DNA of 64,000 nt, taken from contig CAVVLO010000003.1 in the NCBI GenBank assembly GCA_963749155.1, positions 352,001 through 416,000 of the forward strand. Reading direction: 5' to 3'. This DNA is from an uncultured Armatimonadia bacterium. GTDB taxonomy: Bacteria > Armatimonadota > Zipacnadia > CAVVLO01. Below the pieces are notes generated by a model. It searched no databases, was not told where the DNA came from, and saw nothing but the letters and a program-made list of their open reading frames with translations. The position numbers and the translations under genes were made by a program. This document shows positions 1,020 to 14,937 of this stretch, one piece after another. Each line of letters starts with the position of its first letter. Position 1 is the first letter of the stretch.

Positions 1020-3061
1020 TCAATCGAGCAGTGCGGCCTGCATACGCAGTGTCTCGGCGCGTTTCAGAATCACTTCGGCCAGCTTATGAGAGTTGGTCTC
1101 CAGCCGCGCCAGGGAGCCTGGGCTGAAGAGCTTTACCCATTCGGCCGGGACGTTACCGGCGCCGGAAAGGGTACCCGCGAACATCGCCGCGCGCCCGCAG
1201 GTGGTGTCCGCATCACGGCCGATATTGGCCCCGCCGATTGCTGCCTGCCTGACATCGCCCTTCGAGATAAGCAACATCGCAAGCGACAGGCCAAACAGCT
1301 CGAGCGGGTCAATGTGATGGTACATTAGACACTTCTCGTACAGCTCTGGTCGCGCCGCCAGGGGGTCATCGTAGCGAACGGCGATGTTCAAAACACTCTT
1401 CCAGATAATCGTAGGCGCTGTTGAAGCGGGTCTTGTAGAAGACTTGCAGCGGCTCTTTGGGTGCAAAACGCAATATGGTGTTGCAGACGTCCGCAACAGT
1501 CGCGCCAGGCTGCATCGCCCTGGCAACACCTGCCGCAAGGAGCGAGGCGGCCAGGTTGTCGAGGCCTCTCTGGTACATATACGAGATGCACCTGGCTTCG
1601 TAGAAAGCCGCTTCCGGGTCACCTGCGTTGAAGAGGCCGACAGGCTCCATACACATCACGGTAGAGCCGGTCACCTGTGTCCAGTGGCCAGTGATACGCG
1701 GATCCCAGCCAGCCTTGATAAGGTCGTAGCAGTGGCCCATACAGTTGACGAAGAAATGGTCTCGGTTGAGTCTGTCGCGCCAGGTCTTGCCGAAGTCGCG
1801 AGCCATTATTGGACGGTCACAATCGATATAGGTCTCCACCAGGTGCATGGCCATCTGGTTGTCGTCTTCGGACTCCAGCCGTGAGGGGTCGAGGATACCC
1901 TGGATACCACCAGGATACTTCTCATCCACTTCCCACCAGAAGGCGCCCTCGACAGGAGAGCCCATCGCATTGCCAATCGCACCCGCCAAAAGGCAGCCGT
2001 AGACCTTGTCGAAGAGCAGCGTCTCGCCTTCGGGGAGGAGTTCTTCAAGTTCGGTCACAGTCTCGGTGACGATTCCAGCTCCCTGCAACCGCGCGCGAGC
2101 AACTGTCTCAAGAGGCATCCACCCGGCGGCCAGCGGTTCGCCCCACTCTCGCCACTCGGCAGGTAACCCTTCAAGGCCATGCAGCGCGCCAAGGGCGGCG
2201 CCCGCGATGACGGCGCTAACCTCACAGGTGCTCTGAGGCGGCCCGGTCAGGACGCCCATCAGTTCAGTTGGAGAGTCGCCATACAGCCACATCACAGGCA
2301 GCAGCTGGCCGATGGGATCAGGATCCCAATAGCCTTTCAGGGCCGGATTACCGAGGGTCGCGCCATTAGCGAGCCAGCGCGCCAGGAAGCCGCCCTCATC
2401 GTTCACCGCGCCCCACTTGAAGGGGGTGTCCAGCTCGTAGAAAAGGTCGCCGCAGAACTCTCGCGCAAGCTCGAGGACGGTCTTCACCATCCCTTTGGGG
2501 GTAGCGCCAGGCACGAAGGCAGCCGCGATAAGGGCGGCCGAGAGGCCCGCCCAGTCAGCGCCGAGGCGCGGGGCGGTCGTGGAAGCGATTTCCACCCCGT
2601 CGAGATACGCCAGGCACCGGGTCCCCCGCATGGAAAAGTCCAATAGCGGGCATCGCAGCGGTGATATGACCCGAGGGCACGTTGCCGTGACCGACCAGGC
2701 GCGGATTCATCCCCTCGGCGAGCAGTTCCTGGCTGGTATGGAGCATATCCCAGGCAAAGACCGGGCTGGCGACGCCTTCATCGGTTGCGAACACGCGCCC
2801 GAAGTCCTCGGGGGTAAGCCTGCCGTTCGAGGCCAGGCAGGCTGTGATGGCAACGTCGATGAGGGGAGTCATCGGAGCGGACCACTGGCGGTTCGCTTCG
2901 GGCTTCCAGTCGAAGTTGGGCTTCAACTGAAGGCGCTTCATATCTGCTGGAGCCGTGATGTTATACTGCGGCCCCCCAAGAGTGCGGGCAAAACCGAGCT
3001 GCGCGCCAATGGCAGCGCCCACGAGCGCGCCTTTGGCTCTGTCAGAGAAGTCTTTTACCAA
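1020..3061 (-). CDS. Tandem two-domain ADP-ribosylglycohydrolase (DraG/ARH family); 2 frameshifts
   Basis: Joined ORFs 2555..3112, 1366..2643 and 1020..1622 (shifts ~2615 and ~1390). Motifs GALVGAAIG, GCLLAGAIGNAMGSPVEG, SEDDNQM, GRDADTT. TTG start with GGAGG overlaps the upstream stop. Confidence 0.8.
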
Positions 3062-6533: not shown

Positions 6534-9500
6534 TCAGGTGTCAAGCAAGCGCGAAAGCCTCAGGCAGAGAGCAGGCTCAAGCTCCTTGAGCTGATGGTCT
6601 TCAAGCAGCTGGAAAGCTTGCGAAGCGAGCTGGAAGGCCGCTTCTCTTTCGCCAAGTGCCTCGGCTACCTCCGCCTGGCCTGTAAGGGCGAGGGTTTGCT
6701 CTTCTATATAACCGTTGGCCAGCGCAAGCTGGAGAGCCTCGGAGAGAGGCGGAAGGGCCTCCGAAAAACGCTGCCAGCCGATGAGAAGCGAAGCCTGATG
6801 GAGCAGCGCAAGGGCGATGCCCCGGGCGTTATGCGCTTCTCGAGCCAGGGCGAGTTGCTGTTCGTGCAATAGCCAGGCTTCCTCGGGTTGCCCCAGGCGC
6901 GCCAGCACTTCGCCGCGGTTGCCAAGCGAGCGTACCAGACCCCGCTTGTTGCCGAGTCGTCGGCAGAGGGCTTCTTCCTCTTCGTGGAGGGCAAGCGCCT
7001 CTTCCAGCAGGCCAATTTTCGCCAAAGCCATCGCTCTGGTGCCGAGGGCCATCCGAAGGCCCTCCAGGTGACCGAGCCGGCGGCAAAGCTCCTCCTGCTC
7101 GCCTAGCAAAAAGAGCGCGGCATCTTCCTGCCCTAGTTGCAGAAGCACCAGGGCCTGTTCATGCAAGGCCGATTGCAGCTCTGCCGGGCCGCCAAGCTTC
7201 CGGGCGAGGGCTTCTTCTCTTTCGAGCAAGGCAAGCGCCTCGCGCAGTCTGCCCTGCCTGGAGAGCAGCCTTGCCTGGTCGCCAAAGCAGGCGAGCAATC
7301 CCCGCTCATCGGCCAGTTGCTCGCACAGGGACTGCTGGCGCTGAAGGAGCTGCCAGGCAGAAGCCACATCGCCCCTGGTATAGTGCAGCAAAGCTTCATG
7401 GCCAAGCGTGGCCTCGAGTTCGGGCAGGCGTTTGGCGCGTCTCGAAACGTTGTTCCAGTTCGGCGAGCAGGGCAAGTGCCTCATCTGGATGGCCGAAGTC
7501 ATCGAGGAGATGGGCCGCAGCGTGCAGCACGCCTTCTGCAAGAGCTTGCCTGTTATCAAGGAGAGGGGCAAGTGAGGCAACCAGGTCGCCCTCTCCAGAG
7601 GCTTCAAGGCGAGCCCAATAGCCTTTGAGCTCGAATTCGTCCCTTGCCCAGGTCGCTTCGAGGATATCCGGCTGTGCGAGCAGGCGCGCGAGTCGTTTGC
7701 CCTGTCCGGCGCGATCGAGTTGCCAGGGCAGTTCCTCTACCTGTCTGTCGTCCAGAGGGCGCGCCTCGAACCAGTCGGCCAGTGAGAGTCGCCACCCAAG
7801 GCCAGCGTCTATTGCCCAATAACGCTGTTCGACGGCGGTTTTGAGCGCGCGATGATAGTAGTCTACCTGTCGGCCTCGTCTCAGTAGCCAGGGGCGAAGC
7901 TGACGCAGGATGACCTGGAGTTCGCCCCGGTCGTCTTGCTGAGCGGTCAGCGAGGCAAGCTCCATCTCGGAAAGACCCGCGCGCGAAGCGGCCAGCAGGC
8001 AGGTCAGCGCCTCCACCAGGGGGGCTCGGAAGTCAAGCTCCAGTCGCTCCAGCACCTGCCCGAACAACCCAGTGACATCAGAGGCCTCGGCGAAGCGATG
8101 GAGGCGCGATTCCAGTTGCTCGAAGGAACCAAAACCACGCAGCTCTTCGAGCGCAACCTGCAGGTAGAGTGGATTGCGCGCGCCAGTATTCGCAAGCAGC
8201 AACGCTTTCTGTCCTTCTTCCAGCGTCTTGGCCGAGAGAGAAGGCAATTCCGCAAGCAGGATTGCTGCCTCTGGCTGGGCAAGTGGGGCAAGCTCGAGCA
8301 CTTCCGCGCCTCTTTTCCTTGCCTCTTCGACAAGAGGGCCCGAGGTACAACTCGCCAGGAGCTTCACGTTGGGAGGCAGCACTTCTGGAAGCCACGGCAA
8401 TCCCAGTTCGAGGTCCCTCTGGTCGAGTTGATCGAGGCCATCGATAATCAGCAGCACTTTTTCGCTCTCGGCCACCAGTCCAAGCGCAGTGCGGAAGGCT
8501 TCCGGCAGGCGCGCGGGGTCTTCAGGCACTTCCATTGGAAGACCGAGAACCTCAACCAGTTCTTGCGTGAGGCGCGCAAGCAATCTCGGCAGGCTGGTAG
8601 ATGCCGCGCTGGCGCCAACAAAATGGGGCACAACGAAAAAGTCAGGCTTATACGCAGCCCAGTCTACATAATGGCGAGCGAGAAGGGCCGACTTGCCAAC
8701 GCCAGCTTCGCCCGTGACAAGCAGAGGCTGAGCGGCCTCGCTGGCGCAAAAGGCAGCAAGTTGCGCAAGCGGCTCCTCCCTCCCCACAAAGACACGCAAG
8801 AGGGCCTCCGCAAAGAGTGAATGAGCGGCGAGTTCACCCGCAAGGGGCAGTTCTGTAATCTCGCCAGTCGTCCCTGCTACCTCGGGGTACCGTGCCGAAA
8901 TGGCCGACCAGAGGTCGTTTTCGACCCTTGTGCCGAATTCTTCGAGGCCGGACAATAACAGTGAGCCATGTTCGAGGAGAGGACTTCGGAGGGCGGCGGG
9001 CAGGGCCTGCCATTCTGCGGGAGAGATAGTCCCATCGCGCGCAAAGGCTTCAAGCCCCTCCAGTTGCGGAGTTGAAAGCAAAGGAGCCACGAGGCGCCAG
9101 TCGAGTTTGAAACCCGCCCAATGGGCTGTATAGCCCTCCATCAGAGGGAAGCCTGACTCGCGCAACCGCTCCTTAAGAACGGCAAGCTTGGCGCGCGCGG
9201 CTGGCTCCTCATCTCTCAGGAGGGGAAGCGCCTCCGCAGGCACCTCGTCCAGCAAGGCCGGATCACGCAGGTAGAAGAAGCTTTGCCCCTTCATTGGGGG
9301 ATTGAGCAGCACGCCATAGACTATCTCGAGCGCCGTAATCGAGCTGCCAGAATAGTCTTGCACCCAGGAATACCGCTGCAGTGTTTCGGGATTTACCCGG
9401 TTCGGCAACCAGCCATAACGCTCACCCAGCAGGCCCAGGAAGTAGGGACGCGTATCACTGGCCTCGGGACGGCAGCGGTCTATCTCGGCAAGGCAAAGCT

Positions 9501-9693
9501 CCAGGACTTCATCTTTCTCGGCTTGCTGACGAGTAACACCCCACCGCAGGTCAATATCGGTGAAGTAGATACGATGAGCAGCGAGACGCTCGCGCAACTT
9601 GGGAAAGACAACCTTCACCAGCCAGTCACGTTCCGCGTGCATATCGCGGAACGTTGAGCTGATGAAAACGCGCACCTCTCGCCAACGCGCCAT
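6534..9693 (-). CDS. STAND NTPase: DUF4062 (TIR/NDT-like) + NACHT + TPR repeats; 1 frameshift
   Basis: VRVFISSTFRDMHAERDWL...DLRWGV...LGERYGW...SITALE (DUF4062). Walker A GEAGVGKS, Walker B LLIIDGLD. C-terminal ~40-aa TPR repeats (EEALALHEEEEALCRRLGNKRGLVRSLGNRG) in ORF 6534..7607, joined at ~7440. Confidence 0.85.
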
Positions 9694-9716
9694 CGGCGCC
9701 TCCTCGATGTGAGAGG

Positions 9717-10304
9717 TTAGCCTTCCGGCAGGTTGTGGATTACCAGGGCGCCCTGCTCGGGCCCGAGGCTGGTGGGAGTGCTGGTGCCAGGGATGCGGTT
9801 GCCAGCCTTTATGTGGAGCACTGGTTTACCGGCAGCAAGGGCTTTGGCGACGATCTCGCCAGTGCCTCCCTGCCCCTGAGCGCCCTGGCCATCCCAAATC
9901 GCCACCAGCACGTCCGAGTGTTCGAGGACATACTCGCCCGCCCTCGCATAACCTTCGTTGCGTTCAGCCGCCTCGGGCATCACGACGACCTCGCGGGCGT
10001 GTTCGAGTAGCCTGTCAAACTCGGCCAGGGATTCAGGAGTCTCGAAATCCTGCTCGTATTCCATCTGATCGAAGGGCAAGACGGCTACAAGGCCGCCCCC
10101 AGGGCGATCAATTACCGCCTCGGCGACCAGCCTGTCGGCGCCTTCGGCCAGGGAGGAAAGACAAACAAGTTCGCTGCCCCGGAAGGTGTCTTCCAGCAGG
10201 TCGAGCGCGCGTTCGAGACTGGCCAGCAGTCTGGGCAATTCGGCCAGGAACCGATGGCCGGTGATACCGACATACAAGGATCCAGTAACTTGTTGCATCG
10301 TCAC
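9717..10304 (-). CDS. Stand-alone SLOG (SMF/DprA-LOG superfamily) nucleotide-binding protein
   Basis: VGITGHR...SSLAEGADRLVA...AVLPF...Y..DF...DVLVAIWDG...GGTGEIV, the pattern of SLOG domains often fused to SLATT effectors. Start overlaps the upstream stop (GTGA). Confidence 0.75.
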   Translation of the reverse strand: MTMQQVTGSLYVGITGHRFLAELPRLLASLERALDLLEDTFRGSELVCLSSLAEGADRLVAEAVIDRPGGGLVAVLPFDQMEYEQDFETPESLAEFDRLLEHAREVVVMPEAAERNEGYARAGEYVLEHSDVLVAIWDGQGAQGQGGTGEIVAKALAAGKPVLHIKAGNRIPGTSTPTSLGPEQGALVIHNLPEG

Positions 10305-13084
10305 TTATGGGCCTCCGAGGGCAGTTTTACCAGGTGGTAACGCAATTCGGCCAGCAGCCCGGGCAGGTTGCGTTCGAGCTGCAGGCTTTTCTCTTTTAAC
10401 TTCTGAGGCAGCGCGTCCTTGCCACACGGCTCAATAAAGCCAGGGCAGTTGTGAGTAAGCCAGTCATCAACCGGTTCGCACCAGGCGCGCAAGTACTCAT
10501 TGAGCTTCGACGTCTTGTCAGGCACAGGAGCAAACTTCCAGCCATCAGCCAGCTTGGCTCTCATCCAGCGGATATGTTCGAGTTCGGCAAGCCTGTCGAC
10601 ATCGTCGTCGGGAAGAGCTTGCGGCGACTGGCCTTCACGTGCGGGTACGATGACATAACCTACTGCTCTCAGGCGGCGCGTCAGATTACGCACTGATTCT
10701 CGATTGGCTTCTTTATCCGCTTCGCCAAGTTGCGCCCAATCAGGATAAGCCCTGGCACCAGATTGAAATACTTCACGATAGTTCTCGTGGGACATCCTGG
10801 CCAGTTGTTCGAGCACCTCGCCGCGTATTTCCAGTGAATCTGCCAGAGCCAGGAACTCGGTGCCATCAACGTGGAGATTAAGCTGCGACTCGAGAGGCAA
10901 GCTCGAACGCTCGAACTTGCGACGCGACGCGAGCAGGCTCATATTGATGAGGGCCTCCAGGCTGCGCACGCCATGGTAGTACTTGCTGACTTCAAGGAAA
11001 GCTCCGAGCACACCCAGGTCCATGTTGAGCTCACCTTTACCTTCAGGTTGCTCGAACAGATGGGCAGCGTTGATTTTGAGCAGCTCGCGCAGAGTGACAG
11101 CCCTGCGGATGACATGGTAGGGGTCTCCCCCATCATGGGTGCGATTCGGCCCCATTATGTCAACATAGCCGCGCAACCGGCTCACAAAGTCAGGCCCTTT
11201 AACCTGGCGGAAGGCTTCATCGCCCCCTTCGAGATTCTGACCGAATTCTGCCATCTGATGACAGGTGCCCCCCGCGAAGACGAAGATGGCCGGCCCGATG
11301 GGATGGGTAATCTGGCCCTCCTGGAAGCTGCCATCCTGCATCGGTGAGAGGAAATAGCGCAACCAACCCAACGGCTGATCGTTGAGGCGGGTGTCGAACT
11401 CGTCCCAGAAGACGAGAGGGACTTTACCGGAGAGTGAGACATCTCTTACCTGATGCAGGGCGTCAAGCAGTTGCTCGGGATCGTTGAACTGCGAAAGATT
11501 GAAAGTCTTTTCTTCCAGTTTGTCCTTCGCAAGTGCGCGCGCAAGCTGCTTGATGCCGAAGGACTTGCCCGAACCAGGAGGGCCAAACACCGCCAGATTG
11601 AGCGGTGGGCTCTTGGGCTTGTCGCAATAACTCCGGATAAGCGAAGCAAGCACGCGATAACTCTCGATTTCGCGCCTGTCTACCACTGTCAATTTGCCAA
11701 AGGTAGCTGTAGGCACGCCTGCAAGCCTGTTGCCCAGGCCGTTCAATACTATCCCCCTGGCGACATCCAGCAAGGGGCTTCCTGATCCGCGAGGTTGCTC
11801 TGGGTCTTCGGAAATCTCTTCGCAACTGGCCTGAAGCAAAGTCCAGTAACCATGCCCTGAGCGAAAGCGTTCGGTTTCTGACCAGGCGATAATCGGAGGC
11901 TGCTCTTTGGTTGGGACGACTTGCGAACCTTGCACCCCACCAAACTGAAGCTCGAGTTCCTCCCTGGGCAAAGTCAGATGGCGCACAGGGTCAGCAATCG
12001 GGGCGACCACAAACGCTTCGGCCGGCTGGCTTACGGTATCCGCGACAAGCTGGAGAGGAAAGACCAGCCGGTCAACATCCCCAGGTTGCTTAACAAGCTG
12101 ATAACCTTCGAGATGCAATTTGCGCATGGCGGCCAGTCCACCTTTTATGGCGGCAGGCCAATCTGGGGTGCTGGTCCTCAGCAACTCCCGGGTGACTGCA
12201 GCTGCCAGGCAGGTGTTATATCCGATTATCCTGCCTTCGAAGCCGGCCTCCCAGGAGCCTTCGATGTTATGCGGATCGAAAATCAGCTTGCACAAGGAAC
12301 TGCCATCCGGCTGCCGCACAAGCAAGAGGCACCCAGCAGCCCGGAAGGTGACGATGACAGCGGCACACTTGGACAGACTGCTGATATCACGGTTATGAGT
12401 GAGCTCCCAGAAGGCATCCTGAGCTGTGCGCTCCCAGGAAAGGGCCCGCGATAACTGCATGCCCGAGGCGCGCAGATCATCTGCAGTCACCAGGACAACC
12501 AGCCGGTCGGCATACGCAGGCACCAGTCGCTCCCAAAGAGGCCCCTGGGCAACCGGGTCAGAGAGCTTGAGCAAGATTGGCCCTTTATACTGCTTGCTGC
12601 TCAAGGCAAGAGGCCAGAGCTCGGGTCGCCTCCTGAAATCGAAACCGGCATCGTCAAGCACAACCAGAGCCGGATCCGGCACATCGTCAACTAACCCACG
12701 CCAACCAGCCAACTCGCTAGTTTCGACATCGCAGCAGTCATCAACTCCAAGCAATTCGTCTACGCGCCAGACGCTAACTCTGGAACCGTTTTCCTTAGGG
12801 TAAGGCTTCCACATTGCGAAGGCATGATGATGATCGGGATCGCCCGGGGCGATTGCAGTCAGCGGCGCCTGAGGTTGACGAAGCTCAAACTTCCCTGGCA
12901 GGCTTGCTGCAACCAGTTCGATGACATCAGCCAGCAAGGCGGCGCCACCTCGCTGCCAACAGGCCCGGATGCCCTTGAAGCCCTCAAGCCTGGCCTCGCC
13001 ACTGGGACAACGCATCATATTCCAGTCCATCGTGACATCGCCCGTTACAACGCAAAGGCGGGCAGCATCCTTACGCTTGCGCAT
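10301..13084 (-). CDS. Degenerate PfkB/ribokinase-like domain + P-loop ATPase + tandem RyR domains
   Basis: N-terminal VVTGDVTMDW...GGAALLA. Walker A FGPPGSGKSF, Walker B LVFWDEFD. C-terminal LARMSHENY..WAQLGEADKEANR and LAELEHIRWMRAKLADGWKFAP..DK (RyR repeats). Confidence 0.8.
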   Translation of the reverse strand: MRKRKDAARLCVVTGDVTMDWNMMRCPSGEARLEGFKGIRACWQRGGAALLADVIELVAASLPGKFELRQPQAPLTAIAPGDPDHHHAFAMWKPYPKENGSRVSVWRVDELLGVDDCCDVETSELAGWRGLVDDVPDPALVVLDDAGFDFRRRPELWPLALSSKQYKGPILLKLSDPVAQGPLWERLVPAYADRLVVLVTADDLRASGMQLSRALSWERTAQDAFWELTHNRDISSLSKCAAVIVTFRAAGCLLLVRQPDGSSLCKLIFDPHNIEGSWEAGFEGRIIGYNTCLAAAVTRELLRTSTPDWPAAIKGGLAAMRKLHLEGYQLVKQPGDVDRLVFPLQLVADTVSQPAEAFVVAPIADPVRHLTLPREELELQFGGVQGSQVVPTKEQPPIIAWSETERFRSGHGYWTLLQASCEEISEDPEQPRGSGSPLLDVARGIVLNGLGNRLAGVPTATFGKLTVVDRREIESYRVLASLIRSYCDKPKSPPLNLAVFGPPGSGKSFGIKQLARALAKDKLEEKTFNLSQFNDPEQLLDALHQVRDVSLSGKVPLVFWDEFDTRLNDQPLGWLRYFLSPMQDGSFQEGQITHPIGPAIFVFAGGTCHQMAEFGQNLEGGDEAFRQVKGPDFVSRLRGYVDIMGPNRTHDGGDPYHVIRRAVTLRELLKINAAHLFEQPEGKGELNMDLGVLGAFLEVSKYYHGVRSLEALINMSLLASRRKFERSSLPLESQLNLHVDGTEFLALADSLEIRGEVLEQLARMSHENYREVFQSGARAYPDWAQLGEADKEANRESVRNLTRRLRAVGYVIVPAREGQSPQALPDDDVDRLAELEHIRWMRAKLADGWKFAPVPDKTSKLNEYLRAWCEPVDDWLTHNCPGFIEPCGKDALPQKLKEKSLQLERNLPGLLAELRYHLVKLPSEAHK

Positions 13085-13100
13085 AGGTTTACCTCCAGAA

Positions 13101-14888
13101 TCAAGCCTCAGGCTTTGAGCACTCGCAGTTCGGTGCTCCAGACCGGCAGAGTTCCAGGCCGACGGTGCCCAGCAGGCGCGGCAGGCCCCTTATGGCAGCG
13201 CGATTCTTCTCGCGAGTGGTTTCCTGAAGTTCTCCCCATTCCAGCAGGTCGGGATGAGTCTTGCGTCGAGAGTCCTTGGGACCAGGGGCATACTTCCAGC
13301 CCGACTCTTCACGTTCCTTGCGCCAGCGAGAATGCTCCTTTTGGGCCACTTGCTCAAGTGTTGCTTCATCCAGCCGATACTGGCCGGCATCCAGCCTGGT
13401 CAGAGCGCGGATCCCAAGCCCTGCCTCGGCAAGCAACTGACCAAGCGCGTCGGCCTGGGTGCGGTTGGAGTCCTGCAGTCGTTCGGGCAACTGGCTCCAG
13501 GGCACGAGGGAGGAGTTGGTCTCGGGCGTATCGCCAAGCTTCAGGGCCTCGGCGACATATTGCTCGTGCAGGGCCCTTGCTAGCAGCTCATGGCCGCTTG
13601 AAAGCAGCTGCTCGGGCGTGCAGGCGCGTTCCAGCAAGCCGAAGACCTGCAGCCGATAAGCTTTATGATCGGGCGTACTGACCCGCAGCAGAGCAGCCAG
13701 GCCGTTTTCTTCCTCAAGCCTCACGATGATGGGGGCATCAGATTCGGGCAGCTTGGGCTCGAGTCTTAATGCGGCAGAGACTGCAAGCGGTTCATCGTCC
13801 AGGCATATGAACACCGAGGTCAGTTTGACGCCAGGCTGGGTAGTGAGGAATTCGGCCCTGTGGAACTCGACCGATTCGAGACTAAAATCGCGCGTTGTGA
13901 TCTCGAGGACTTCCTCAACCAGAGGCAGCCGGGTCACCAGGGCGGTCAGACGTTCGGTTGCGTATCTGTCTATCAAGGTTACGAAAGGCTTGGGAGCGCC
14001 TTCCGGCGCCAGAGCTTGCCACTCTATCGCGAGCTGGGAAAGCAGGCTCTGTCCAAACTGACCGAAGCCAACAATCACAAGCGCTGGCCTGGTTGGCAGG
14101 TCCATCGGTAAGGGGCGCGTCTGGCTGAGCAGCACGCGGGCGCCTGCCTCAAACAGATTGAAATACTCTATCCTCAGGCCACTTTCGGCAATTGTGTTGT
14201 AACTCTGCTCGCGCAATAACTCGTAGAGCAGTGGATCGGAGATATGGGCAAAGCAGGTCGCGCGCGGCCCGGAGTTTTTCAGGACCAATTCTCGGCATCT
14301 AAGGGCAATTTCGGCGTTAGAGCCCGCAGGGCCGCAGACAGCGAGGATGTAGCGCGCCCTGGCAACGCGCGCCTTGCGCAGCAGCTCGGGCTCGGTCGCA
14401 TCGCCGTGCAATACGATGGCCCCCGCGTGCCTTGCGGCTTCAATCCGGTCGTTGGCTTCATCTCGCTCGATAATGACAACTCTGAGGCCATCTTTCAGGA
14501 AGGCGCGCGCCCAGAGCAGCCCCTTGCGTCCCAGGCCACAGATGACTATATGGCCAGAATAACGACGCAGGCGCAGGAAAGCGAGTTCCTCGGAGAAGAG
14601 CAACGCCACAGCTTTTACAGCAGTGAAGCCAGCTACAAGCGGAGCAAGCCAGCGAGCCAGTTCAAGCAGAGGCGGGATGGGTCCTTCCAGCGAGCCGGAT
14701 TCGAGCACGAAGAGCTGCAGGGTAAGGTAAAAAGCGCCTGCCAGCGAGTAGGGAGTGCCGGCCTCGAGCCCCTGCTCCAAAAATCCCACTAGCCCAGCAA
14801 GCGTGGCAATCCCCCAGACGAGGGCGACCAGCCACCCCTGCAGGTCGCGCACGAACTCCCAGAAGCCCCCGAGGCGGCCGCTAGCCAA
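13101..14888 (-). CDS. Membrane protein: 2TM channel-like module + two TrkA_N/RCK Rossmann domains + tandem RyR domains
   Basis: Two hydrophobic helices flank AFYLTLQLFVLE. HIVICGLGRKG...GDATEPELLRKARV and LVIVGFGQFG. LARALHEQY..SLVPWSQLPERLQDSNR and EHSRW...GWKYAPGPKDSRRKTHPDLLEWGEL. Confidence 0.85.
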   Translation of the reverse strand: MASGRLGGFWEFVRDLQGWLVALVWGIATLAGLVGFLEQGLEAGTPYSLAGAFYLTLQLFVLESGSLEGPIPPLLELARWLAPLVAGFTAVKAVALLFSEELAFLRLRRYSGHIVICGLGRKGLLWARAFLKDGLRVVIIERDEANDRIEAARHAGAIVLHGDATEPELLRKARVARARYILAVCGPAGSNAEIALRCRELVLKNSGPRATCFAHISDPLLYELLREQSYNTIAESGLRIEYFNLFEAGARVLLSQTRPLPMDLPTRPALVIVGFGQFGQSLLSQLAIEWQALAPEGAPKPFVTLIDRYATERLTALVTRLPLVEEVLEITTRDFSLESVEFHRAEFLTTQPGVKLTSVFICLDDEPLAVSAALRLEPKLPESDAPIIVRLEEENGLAALLRVSTPDHKAYRLQVFGLLERACTPEQLLSSGHELLARALHEQYVAEALKLGDTPETNSSLVPWSQLPERLQDSNRTQADALGQLLAEAGLGIRALTRLDAGQYRLDEATLEQVAQKEHSRWRKEREESGWKYAPGPKDSRRKTHPDLLEWGELQETTREKNRAAIRGLPRLLGTVGLELCRSGAPNCECSKPEA

Positions 14889-14910
14889 GGTCCCCCCTCC
14901 CTGCTGGCAG

Positions 14911-14937
14911 ATTCGCCAGCGCGGGAGGGATTCCTGC
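14911..14937 (-). promoter_or_regulatory. SigmaH-like promoter GCAGGA-N17-GAAT for the RyR operon
   Basis: Exact motif about 22 bp upstream of the TTG start, followed by a GGAGGG RBS. Confidence 0.5.

Follow-up and report, generated by a model that had tools for sequence, protein, structure and literature searches.

The Locus and Its Four Genes

We analyzed a 64,000-nt stretch of contig CAVVLO010000003.1 from an uncultured bacterium of the Armatimonadota (hereafter the window; all coordinates are positions within it), and focused our attention on four genes, A to D, which the reading of its open reading frames (ORFs) places at 6534-14888, all co-oriented on the minus strand. Together they form a cassette whose products combine ryanodine receptor (RyR), SLOG and DUF4062 domains, and its features are as follows.

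13101-14888, minus strand: gene A, 595 aa; two transmembrane helices (2TM), RCK/TrkA_N, second Rossmann motif, tandem RyR
10301-13084, minus strand: gene B, 927 aa; PfkB-like fold, P-loop ATPase, tandem RyR
9717-10304, minus strand: gene C, 195 aa; stand-alone SLOG fold
7396-9693, minus strand: upstream ORF of gene D, 765 aa; DUF4062 and NACHT
6534-7607, minus strand: downstream ORF of gene D, 357 aa; TPR repeats
7433-7483, minus strand: frameshift zone of gene D, where tblastn alignments switch frame
14890-14935, minus strand: hairpin before gene A; RNA fold of -32 kcal/mol

Genes A and B are separated by 16 bp, the end of B and the start of C share 4 bp, and a gap of 23 bp lies between C and D. 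An earlier reading of this DNA, made from the sequence alone (the sequence-only reading), had described four co-oriented, tightly packed genes, and the same coordinates and spacings were found here. The domain layouts which that reading had assigned were also recovered for all four proteins: in A (2TM-RCK-RCK-RyR-RyR) through a TrkA_N match, a second Rossmann GxGxxG, tandem RyR repeats and two hydrophobic segments; in B (PfkB-like-ATPase-RyR-RyR) through its fold, Walker motifs and a family-profile match to RyR; in C (stand-alone SLOG) through a Foldseek search with a structural model; and in D (DUF4062-NACHT-TPR) through Pfam matches to all three domains.

Domain Composition of the Encoded Proteins

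Protein A matches the Pfam models TrkA_N (74 bits, E 1.6e-20) and RyR (50.2 bits, E 3e-13, with a cut-off of 27.4), and it is the only protein of the window's genome to be matched by the latter. A profile of its family, built from 21 A-type proteins, was compared with the PDB, where it matched repeat12 of the animal ryanodine receptor (RyR3; E 6.8e-34, in 2-4 stretches) and TrkA (E 6e-16); the wider family of A was judged from the 80 loci described below, the PDB and the ESM Atlas. The tandem RyR repeats lie at residues ~437-500 and ~508-580, and a second invariant GxGxxG Rossmann motif is seen in the family alignment. According to our own reading of the motifs, the RyR region of A keeps H-x-x-W (EH..W) and the second His and has an Asn at the acid position, and in view of this Asn the residue pattern would fit a binder rather than a hydrolase. 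At the N-terminus, two hydrophobic segments (residues 16-34 and 81-99) enclose a conserved, pore-loop-like stretch (YLTLQL..LESG), and A is presumed to be a signal-gated membrane effector. No match to a potassium channel or transporter model was found in Pfam (Ion_trans_2 included), nor was a TVGYG filter, the conserved stretch reading LESG; clusters bearing Ion_trans_2 score 0.89-0.90 in a feature search of the ESM Atlas, which is taken as a lead only. A TrkA/Kef-like RCK protein next to an accessory ATPase could also point to an operon that simply regulates potassium transport and takes no part in conflict. The RCK/TrkA_N domain of A is bona fide, and its nearest NCBIfam models are KefC, KefB and TrkA, all far under their cut-offs; the lack of a detectable channel or transporter domain speaks against such an operon, as do the distribution data given below.

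Protein B starts with a PfkB-like region (residues 1 to ~380), followed by a linker of poor model quality, a P-loop AAA+-like ATPase (~466-745) and tandem RyR repeats (~755-920). The model of its N-terminal 460 residues (predicted local distance difference test score, pLDDT, of 83.6) adopts a ribokinase/PfkB fold, and a Foldseek search with it returned 344 matches at E<=1e-3 (best E 2.8e-9), all of which, among the matches listed, are sugar or nucleoside kinases of the ribokinase superfamily, with modest template modelling scores of 0.28-0.59 (by query or target length). The ATPase carries a conserved Walker A (GPPGSGKS, at 501) and Walker B (VFWDEFD); its profile gave weak AAA+ matches only in the PDB (VPS4, torsin and Rpt; E 0.07-0.3), and the comparison of B with PADLOC gave nothing beyond a weak P-loop match to mad8. 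With regard to the RyR repeats, the window's B alone scores 23.2 bits against the Pfam model, under the gathering score of 27.4, and the profile of the B family matches RyR2 across both repeats with an E of 3e-21. In the family consensus, the second repeat keeps H, W, H and D (EHERW...KLH...EKEKDR; again our own motif reading).

Several hundred full-length relatives of B are found at ~45% identity, and its PfkB-like domain belongs to a family that counts 2204 representatives at E<=1e-3, of which 912 reach E<=1e-30 (50%-identity clusters), among 1.84 billion, occurring in bacteria and in methanogen-type archaea. The best 150 of these representatives comprise 76 proteins with PfkB-ATPase-RyR architecture, 44 with PfkB-ATPase, 7 with PfkB-ATPase-RyR-SLOG, and 23 N-terminal fragments; among the 44 without RyR, approximately 20 look complete (690-790 aa). 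Because of these architectures, we regard the PfkB-ATPase core as the constant part of the protein, to which RyR and SLOG are added as modules. Add-on sensor domains placed on interchangeable effectors are a hallmark of signal-activated conflict systems.

Protein C has no match in Pfam (which offered no SLOG model hit either), NCBIfam or PADLOC, and its sequence profile found nothing significant in the PDB (best E 0.35). Its structural model is of high quality (pLDDT 95.8), and Foldseek aligned it with YpsA (E 1.5e-7), then with DprA, ShosA, TM1055, a MoCo carrier protein and LOG, and also with the SLOG region of TRPM2 (E ~3e-3). The family shares invariant GxxGHR, AEGADR and GGTG motifs. C also occurs at the C-terminus of B, the two being a single ORF in two genomes of the same class (L084 and L085) and in 7 of the 150 best family representatives; in L084, a DUF4062 gene directly follows the B-C fusion. 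Moreover, SLOG domains of the C type are fused to SLATT-like regions with ~4 transmembrane helices in 7 loci. The fusion of SLOG to SLATT is a usual sensor-effector layout.

The upstream ORF of gene D encodes a DUF4062 domain (PF13271; 50.3 bits for a cut-off of 24.7, E 2.7e-13), with the match covering residues 8-104 and the domain reaching to ~130, and a NACHT domain at residues 323-481 (48.3 bits, E 1.3e-12), while the downstream ORF matches TPR_12 (E 1.9e-12) and TPR_MalT. This gives the layout of an N-terminal effector, a central STAND NTPase and a C-terminal repeat sensor. Two full-length homologues (L010 and L065, 1011-1039 aa) align collinearly by tblastn across both ORFs, in frame -2 from 9693 to ~7483 and then in frame -3 from 7433 to 6690, and therefore D is treated as one frameshifted gene, in whose downstream frame true coding starts near 7433. 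Residue E123 (in SITALEI) stands in a column where Glu is kept in 9 of 9 aligned DUF4062 domains, and from its position we infer that it corresponds to the catalytic Glu of the proteins in the DUF4062 preprints (E97-E108 in their numbering). Those preprints, in their accessible parts, describe DUF4062 as a TIR-like NADase that converts NAD+ to ADP-ribose (ADPR) and nicotinamide and acts against phages (10.64898/2026.05.01.722283, 10.64898/2026.09.04.749371, 10.64898/2026.06.25.731849), and, in an Avs2 protein laid out like D, as the effector at the N-terminus (10.64898/2026.05.01.722283, 10.64898/2026.09.04.749371). The suggestion of the sequence-only reading that D, with its TIR-like DUF4062, makes or cleaves a nucleotide agrees with the NADase activity reported in the two latter sources. 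D taken alone is of an already described kind, that of the DUF4062-Avs proteins. In PADLOC-DB 2.0, the DUF4062-NACHT part matched no family, Avs or other, at E<=0.01, and the tail matched a generic TPR model only.

Recurrence of the Cassette in Other Genomes

To place the cassette in a wider context, the neighborhoods of B homologues were surveyed. Relatives of B numbered 536 in species-representative genomes, and locus counts were made on the best-scoring 80, which are thus top-scoring rather than random and include related, non-independent genomes. These loci belong to Chloroflexota, Acidobacteriota, Planctomycetota, Ignavibacteriota, Actinomycetota, Gemmatimonadota and Armatimonadota, to a deltaproteobacterium, to Bacteroidales and Eubacteriales, and to two methanogen-type archaea. 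When the window proteins were used as tblastn queries, C was found in 49 of the 80 loci (in 37 of them as the next gene after B), full-length A in 25, and the DUF4062 part of D in 28; counting all C-type SLOG genes, 50 loci carry one. All four types come together in seven loci (L011, L022, L037, L041, L045, L052 and L057) which span Chloroflexota, Acidobacteriota, Ignavibacteriota and Planctomycetota, and the order B-C-A-TIR is repeated in L009, L037, L045, L053 and L080. B is, in this set, the hub and the constant element of a recurrent cassette.

The remaining partner varies. Among 91 co-oriented neighbors annotated with Pfam, it is nearly always a TIR_2 protein (joined to TPR, WD40, LVIVD, PPC or ConA-like domains), a DUF4062-NACHT protein that also carries TPR or WD40, or a RelA/SpoT-like nucleotidyltransferase (with TPR and, once, also an LSDAT-type SLOG), and no restriction-modification, CBASS or CRISPR genes were seen among them. 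Further recurrent neighbors are 2TM-RCK proteins of ~260 aa, SLATT proteins and a NUDIX protein. Hidden Markov models (HMMs) detected TIR in 35 of the 80 loci, DUF4062 in 30 and RelA/SpoT-like proteins in 5, with at least one of the three in 57, counts in which the loci that seeded the TIR and DUF4062 models match by construction. The nearest such gene lies at most 1 kb from B in 41 loci and at most 2.5 kb away in 56 of the 57, and 77 of 102 TIR, DUF4062 or RelA ORFs are co-oriented with B. In the 40 loci with at least 5 kb of sequence on both sides, a gene of this generator type is present in 32, C in 25 and A in 12, and one locus has none of generator, C and A. As for the base rate, the 4.17-Mb genome of the window contains 4 DUF4062 and 4 TIR_2 matches, which we estimate to give each a chance of ~2% of lying 10 kb or less from any particular gene. 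The co-occurrence of B homologues with SLOG and with TIR or DUF4062 genes, which the sequence-only reading had proposed to survey, is thus far beyond chance and extends across phyla. A mutual exclusion of TIR and DUF4062 was also considered and dropped, as 9 loci carry both for ~13 expected, which is no different from independence.

These neighborhoods bear on the possibility that two separate systems are found side by side, in which D would be a self-contained, Avs-like NAD+ depleter, and A, B and C an independent sensor of nucleotides or metabolites, clustered with it as defense genes often are. This would be in line with the reports, in the accessible parts of the preprints, that DUF4062-Avs2 and the single-gene Swarozyc protect alone by NAD+ depletion (10.64898/2026.05.01.722283, 10.64898/2026.09.04.749371), with the treatment of TIR proteins in Avs contexts as effectors, and not as signal makers, in the accessible text of a Thoeris survey (10.64898/2025.12.03.692087), and with the 8 of 40 well-flanked B loci that have no TIR, DUF4062 or RelA gene. 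On the other hand, the association is a specific one, in which TIR, DUF4062 and RelA/SpoT genes dominate the 91 neighbors and other kinds of defense gene were not seen; the nearest generator-type gene is no more than 1 kb away from B in 41 loci; the gaps are operon-like, with 23 bp here; and the RyR and SLOG domains of A, B and C are domains known to bind products of TIR proteins. We therefore consider that two unrelated systems at one locus are unlikely, while giving this explanation more weight than the other rivals of the favored interpretation.

Several single loci added observations on these partners. In five of them (L003, L013, L024, L034 and L079), the place of A downstream of B-C is taken by the ~260-aa proteins, made of 2TM and one TrkA_N without RyR, which may represent a minimal version of the membrane effector. 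In three loci of Chloroflexota (L008:12722-14788, L012:12810-14693 and L031:12700-14736), B is followed directly by a RelA/SpoT-TPR gene, and the L031 protein is the one that also has the SLOG domain (LSDAT_prok); the occurrence of such partners suggests that some cassettes may use another nucleotide signal. Directly upstream of B in L069 (9680-9964), a locus with 2-3 TIR genes, a stand-alone gene encodes a 94-aa RyR protein (PF02026, E 2.4e-36), which resembles, on the host side, the phage RyDEP sponges discussed below. The NUDIX hydrolase gene is located between B and a DUF4062-WD40 gene (L016:12678-13202). NUDIX enzymes cleave ADP-ribose, and its presence would fit an ADPR-centered system. 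In a deltaproteobacterial locus (L028:10860-11726), an IS200-like Y1 transposase gene is found just past B, C and a DUF4062-WD40 gene, a hint of mobility.

Distribution of the Cassette

B was detected in 12 of 41 genomes of the same class (its own included), or in 8 of 33 when high-quality genomes are considered, and no relative was found in the viral contigs of IMG/VR. As it is present in only 12 of the 41, the cassette is accessory rather than housekeeping, and the universal conservation in the lineage that the sequence-only reading had named as a sign of a housekeeping potassium system was not observed. The same distribution argues against potassium regulation, as do the link of the cassette to TIR, DUF4062 and STAND genes and the absence of A from 55 of the 80 B loci, which make the potassium operon introduced above very improbable. 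Probably, the cassette would be an accessory, horizontally spread conflict cassette, with phages as its most likely target.

Relation to Known Systems

No system-level match for the cassette was obtained in PADLOC, as had been expected, and nothing in NCBIfam rose above any cut-off. Full-text literature searches found no host RyR-domain defense system, and RyR, PfkB and TrkA have no occurrence in two Aravind-group surveys or in a modularity-network preprint, in agreement with the earlier statement that no named defense system has this composition. The accessible parts of the three DUF4062 preprints contain no occurrence of RyR or SLOG (10.64898/2026.05.01.722283, 10.64898/2026.09.04.749371, 10.64898/2026.06.25.731849), and the accessible running text of the Thoeris survey, its figures and tables aside, makes no mention of RyR, TrkA or ATPase (10.64898/2025.12.03.692087).

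Thoeris is the closest parallel. The survey distinguishes types I-XI and 29 predicted types, with SLATT and ion-channel effectors among them, and in its accessible text type I is described with the SIR2-SLOG protein ThsA and 3' cyclic ADP-ribose (3'cADPR), type VII with a SLATT effector and cADPR, and type X with the ion-channel effector ThsK (10.64898/2025.12.03.692087). As in Thoeris, an NAD+-cleaving gene of TIR type adjoins genes for SLOG sensors or for effectors at the membrane (SLATT, channel), sensors and effectors can be swapped, the distribution is patchy, and the partner is a canonical TIR_2 in 35 of the 80 B loci; likewise, adjacent genes of the window have putative signal-binding domains (the SLOG of C and the RyR of A and B). 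Unlike in Thoeris, the generator of the window is a DUF4062-NACHT-TPR protein, no TIR or TIR_2 Pfam match exists in A-D (the 4 TIR_2 proteins of the genome being encoded elsewhere), the constant partner is a PfkB-like AAA+ RyR protein, the RyR sensors are on the host side, and there are three to four genes instead of two. A may overlap with ThsK or with one of the 29 predicted types, a comparison made with the accessible text of the survey only.

The second relative is found among the defense proteins with DUF4062 (NIR), namely Avs2, Swarozyc, Vulcan, Vesta and Evangelion, as named in the accessible parts of their preprints (10.64898/2026.09.04.749371, 10.64898/2026.05.01.722283, 10.64898/2026.06.25.731849). 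D resembles DUF4062-Avs2 in its N-terminal DUF4062 with the conserved Glu, its STAND NTPase and its C-terminal TPR, and differs in sharing its operon with genes for RyR and SLOG proteins, in having no PADLOC Avs match and in being frameshifted. More generally, the TIR or DUF4062 neighbors of B with TPR, WD40, LVIVD or ConA-like domains resemble either Thoeris ThsB or Avs sensors.

With respect to the RyR domain, phage RyR-domain proteins have been reported to cleave 2'/3'cADPR, with H75, W78, H100 and D117, or to sequester it at nanomolar affinity, by means of a pocket common to repeat12 of the animal receptors; one of them, RyDEP, feeds ADPR into NAD+ resynthesis, and host-encoded RyR proteins are not discussed in the accessible part of that work (10.64898/2026.05.28.727677). 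A link of RyR domains to NAD-derived nucleotides, at which the sequence-only reading had guessed, is upheld by this binding and cleavage of 2'/3'cADPR. Like RyDEP, A and B carry PF02026, the ligand-contacting H-x-x-W and His are kept in A and in the consensus of the B family (motif reading), and the tandem arrangement of the repeats imitates the dimer of RyDEP and the pseudo-dimer of repeat12. In contrast, the RyR domains of the cassette are host-encoded (no viral relative of B having been found) and form part of a membrane RCK protein (A) and of an ATPase (B); therefore, they would be receptors and not anti-defense sponges. The idea that they physically couple A to B, put forward in the sequence-only reading, did not hold up in this respect, as they are better read as ligand sensors. 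A parallel can also be drawn with the ADPR-gated channels of the TRPM2 type, since an ADP-ribose-type ligand is proposed to gate a membrane protein of the cassette and the fold of C matches the SLOG region of TRPM2; the channel parts are unrelated in sequence, the SLOG of the cassette is a separate protein, and its channel candidate uses RyR and RCK.

Alternatively, B, C and perhaps A could be no effectors but a module for control of, or recovery from, the TIR-like NADase, with the RyR repeats cleaving or sequestering stray cADPR-type signals in the manner of phage RyDEP, and with PfkB and SLOG processing ADP-ribose, in order to prevent autoimmunity or to restore NAD+. The PfkB fold is indeed a sugar and nucleoside kinase fold, LOG-type SLOG proteins are nucleotide hydrolases, and an ADP-ribosylglycohydrolase gene is located 4 kb away. 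The four glycosidase residues of RyDEP mentioned above (H, W, H and D) are all kept, on our motif reading, in RyR repeat 2 of the B family, and RyDEP itself, in the accessible part of its description, channels ADPR to NAD+ resynthesis (10.64898/2026.05.28.727677). Nevertheless, the SLOG-SLATT fusions and the 2TM-RCK-RyR protein A resemble killing effectors and not housekeeping enzymes, ~20 complete-looking family members are without RyR, and the window's B has itself lost the His and Asp of RyR repeat 2, so that a recovery module is improbable, less credible than mere co-location and more so than potassium regulation.

Surroundings of the Cassette and Putative Control Elements

The genes on either side encode glycosidase-like proteins (a weak GH42 match, GH4, GxGYxYP and a beta-helix protein), in agreement with the earlier description of a cassette set among glycoside hydrolase genes, and the GC content dips slightly inside B (0.57, for 0.60-0.62 elsewhere). 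An ADP-ribosylglycohydrolase ORF (1366-2643, minus strand, 425 aa; PF03747, E 5.7e-21) lies ~4 kb past D on the same strand; it may be a further gene handling ADP-ribose, or it may be unrelated.

The sequence-only reading had also given the operon a promoter motif of its own. A sigma-70 scan found 0 sites on the minus (coding) strand, and 1 on the plus strand where 1.3 are expected; because no site lies on the coding strand, this claim is left unconfirmed. Instead, the 51 bp that separate A from the glycosidase-like gene upstream contain a strong, GC-rich hairpin of 15 pairs (14890-14935, minus strand; -32 kcal/mol, z -3.66), with none of 200 shuffled sequences being equally stable. Its 3' arm, GGGAGGGGGG, covers a purine-rich stretch, a likely ribosome-binding site, just upstream of the TTG start of A. 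The hairpin may act as the terminator of the upstream gene, or in translational control of A by masking the ribosome-binding site.

Proposed Mechanism and Its Weighing

Altogether, we lean, with clear reservations, towards the cassette being an undescribed Thoeris-like defense system that signals through an NAD derivative and uses RyR and SLOG domains as sensors. D, a protein of the Avs/NLR kind, would recognize a trigger with its TPR repeats and oligomerize through NACHT, and its TIR-like DUF4062 would cleave NAD+ to ADP-ribose or a derivative. The product would then be bound by the tandem RyR repeats of A and B and by the SLOG protein C, which would be a detachable C-terminal module of B. 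A would perturb the membrane, by ion flux, and the PfkB-like AAA+ core of B would provide an ATP-dependent effector or transducer step. The folds, the linkage of the genes, the B-C fusion, the patchy distribution and the replacement of D by TIR or RelA/SpoT-like proteins were observed directly, and experiments on relatives suggest by analogy that DUF4062 would act as an NADase and that RyR domains would bind cADPR or ADPR; every functional step of the model is one that we infer. The core of the proposal first made from the sequence, that of a nucleotide-signaling conflict system, is hence strengthened by co-occurrence, accessory spread, exchange of D for TIR proteins and SLOG-SLATT fusions, whereas its functional steps stay at the level of prediction.

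Several points weigh against this interpretation. In the accessible parts of the preprints, DUF4062 is shown as an NAD+-depleting effector that makes linear ADPR and not a signal (10.64898/2026.05.01.722283, 10.64898/2026.09.04.749371), and since DUF4062-Avs defends alone, D need not talk to A, B and C. No TIR, DUF4062 or RelA gene is within reach in 23 of the 80 B loci, among them the 8 well-flanked ones, and the sampling of the loci and the construction of the HMMs, described with the counts, tell in the same direction. There is no obvious defense island around the cassette, with its glycosidase-like neighbors, and B is without a recognizable toxic domain. PfkB kinases have a catalytic DTxGAGD motif with an Asp base. 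The PfkB-like domain of B seems to lack it, on a reading of the sequence only: the alignment has invariant GD (15-16) and GG (46-47) and shows no GAGD, with G-Y-T-S-C-L in the candidate region.

In addition, the copy in the window shows signs of degeneration. The RyR region of B (residues ~757-900) lacks 14 residues of repeat 1 and has N and S in place of the consensus H and D in repeat 2, and D is frameshifted by 1 base near 7438; taken together, these changes could reflect decay of the local cassette. In a second metagenome, a contig (run X2, record 10; 236 nt, 7417-7653) is without one base at 7438, a difference that would yield a continuous ORF. It is the one contig that covers the site, as those of X1, X3 and X7 do not reach 7438, and given its low depth (3.87), the error could be in either sequence. 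The frameshift may be specific to the strain or an assembly error and, if real, may leave the local copy inactive.

Implications

Overall, the cassette of the window is best filed as one member of a widespread cassette centered on B and C, with RyR-domain receptors in TIR-type NAD-signaling defense as its new element. If the favored interpretation is true, a widespread set of effectors and sensors would be added to TIR-type immune signaling, and DUF4062-STAND proteins would act upstream of other effectors, beyond NAD+ depletion. To our knowledge, the only prokaryote-related role of the RyR domain tested so far is phage counter-defense, and the cassette would give the domain a meaning on the host side. 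A bolder proposal, which we advance only tentatively and hold to be rather doubtful as a whole, is that host RyR repeats would be the native prokaryotic receptors of TIR-type NAD+ signals, with A as a channel gated by ADPR or a cADPR isomer and B as a PfkB-AAA+ machine that the signal switches on; in that case, a bacterial immune pair would be the origin of the connection of cADPR with the ryanodine receptor in animals, and the RyDEP sponges would be captured host domains. The favored interpretation, if true, would already make it testable with small bacterial proteins whether repeat12 of the ryanodine receptor binds cADPR-type ligands, an old question.

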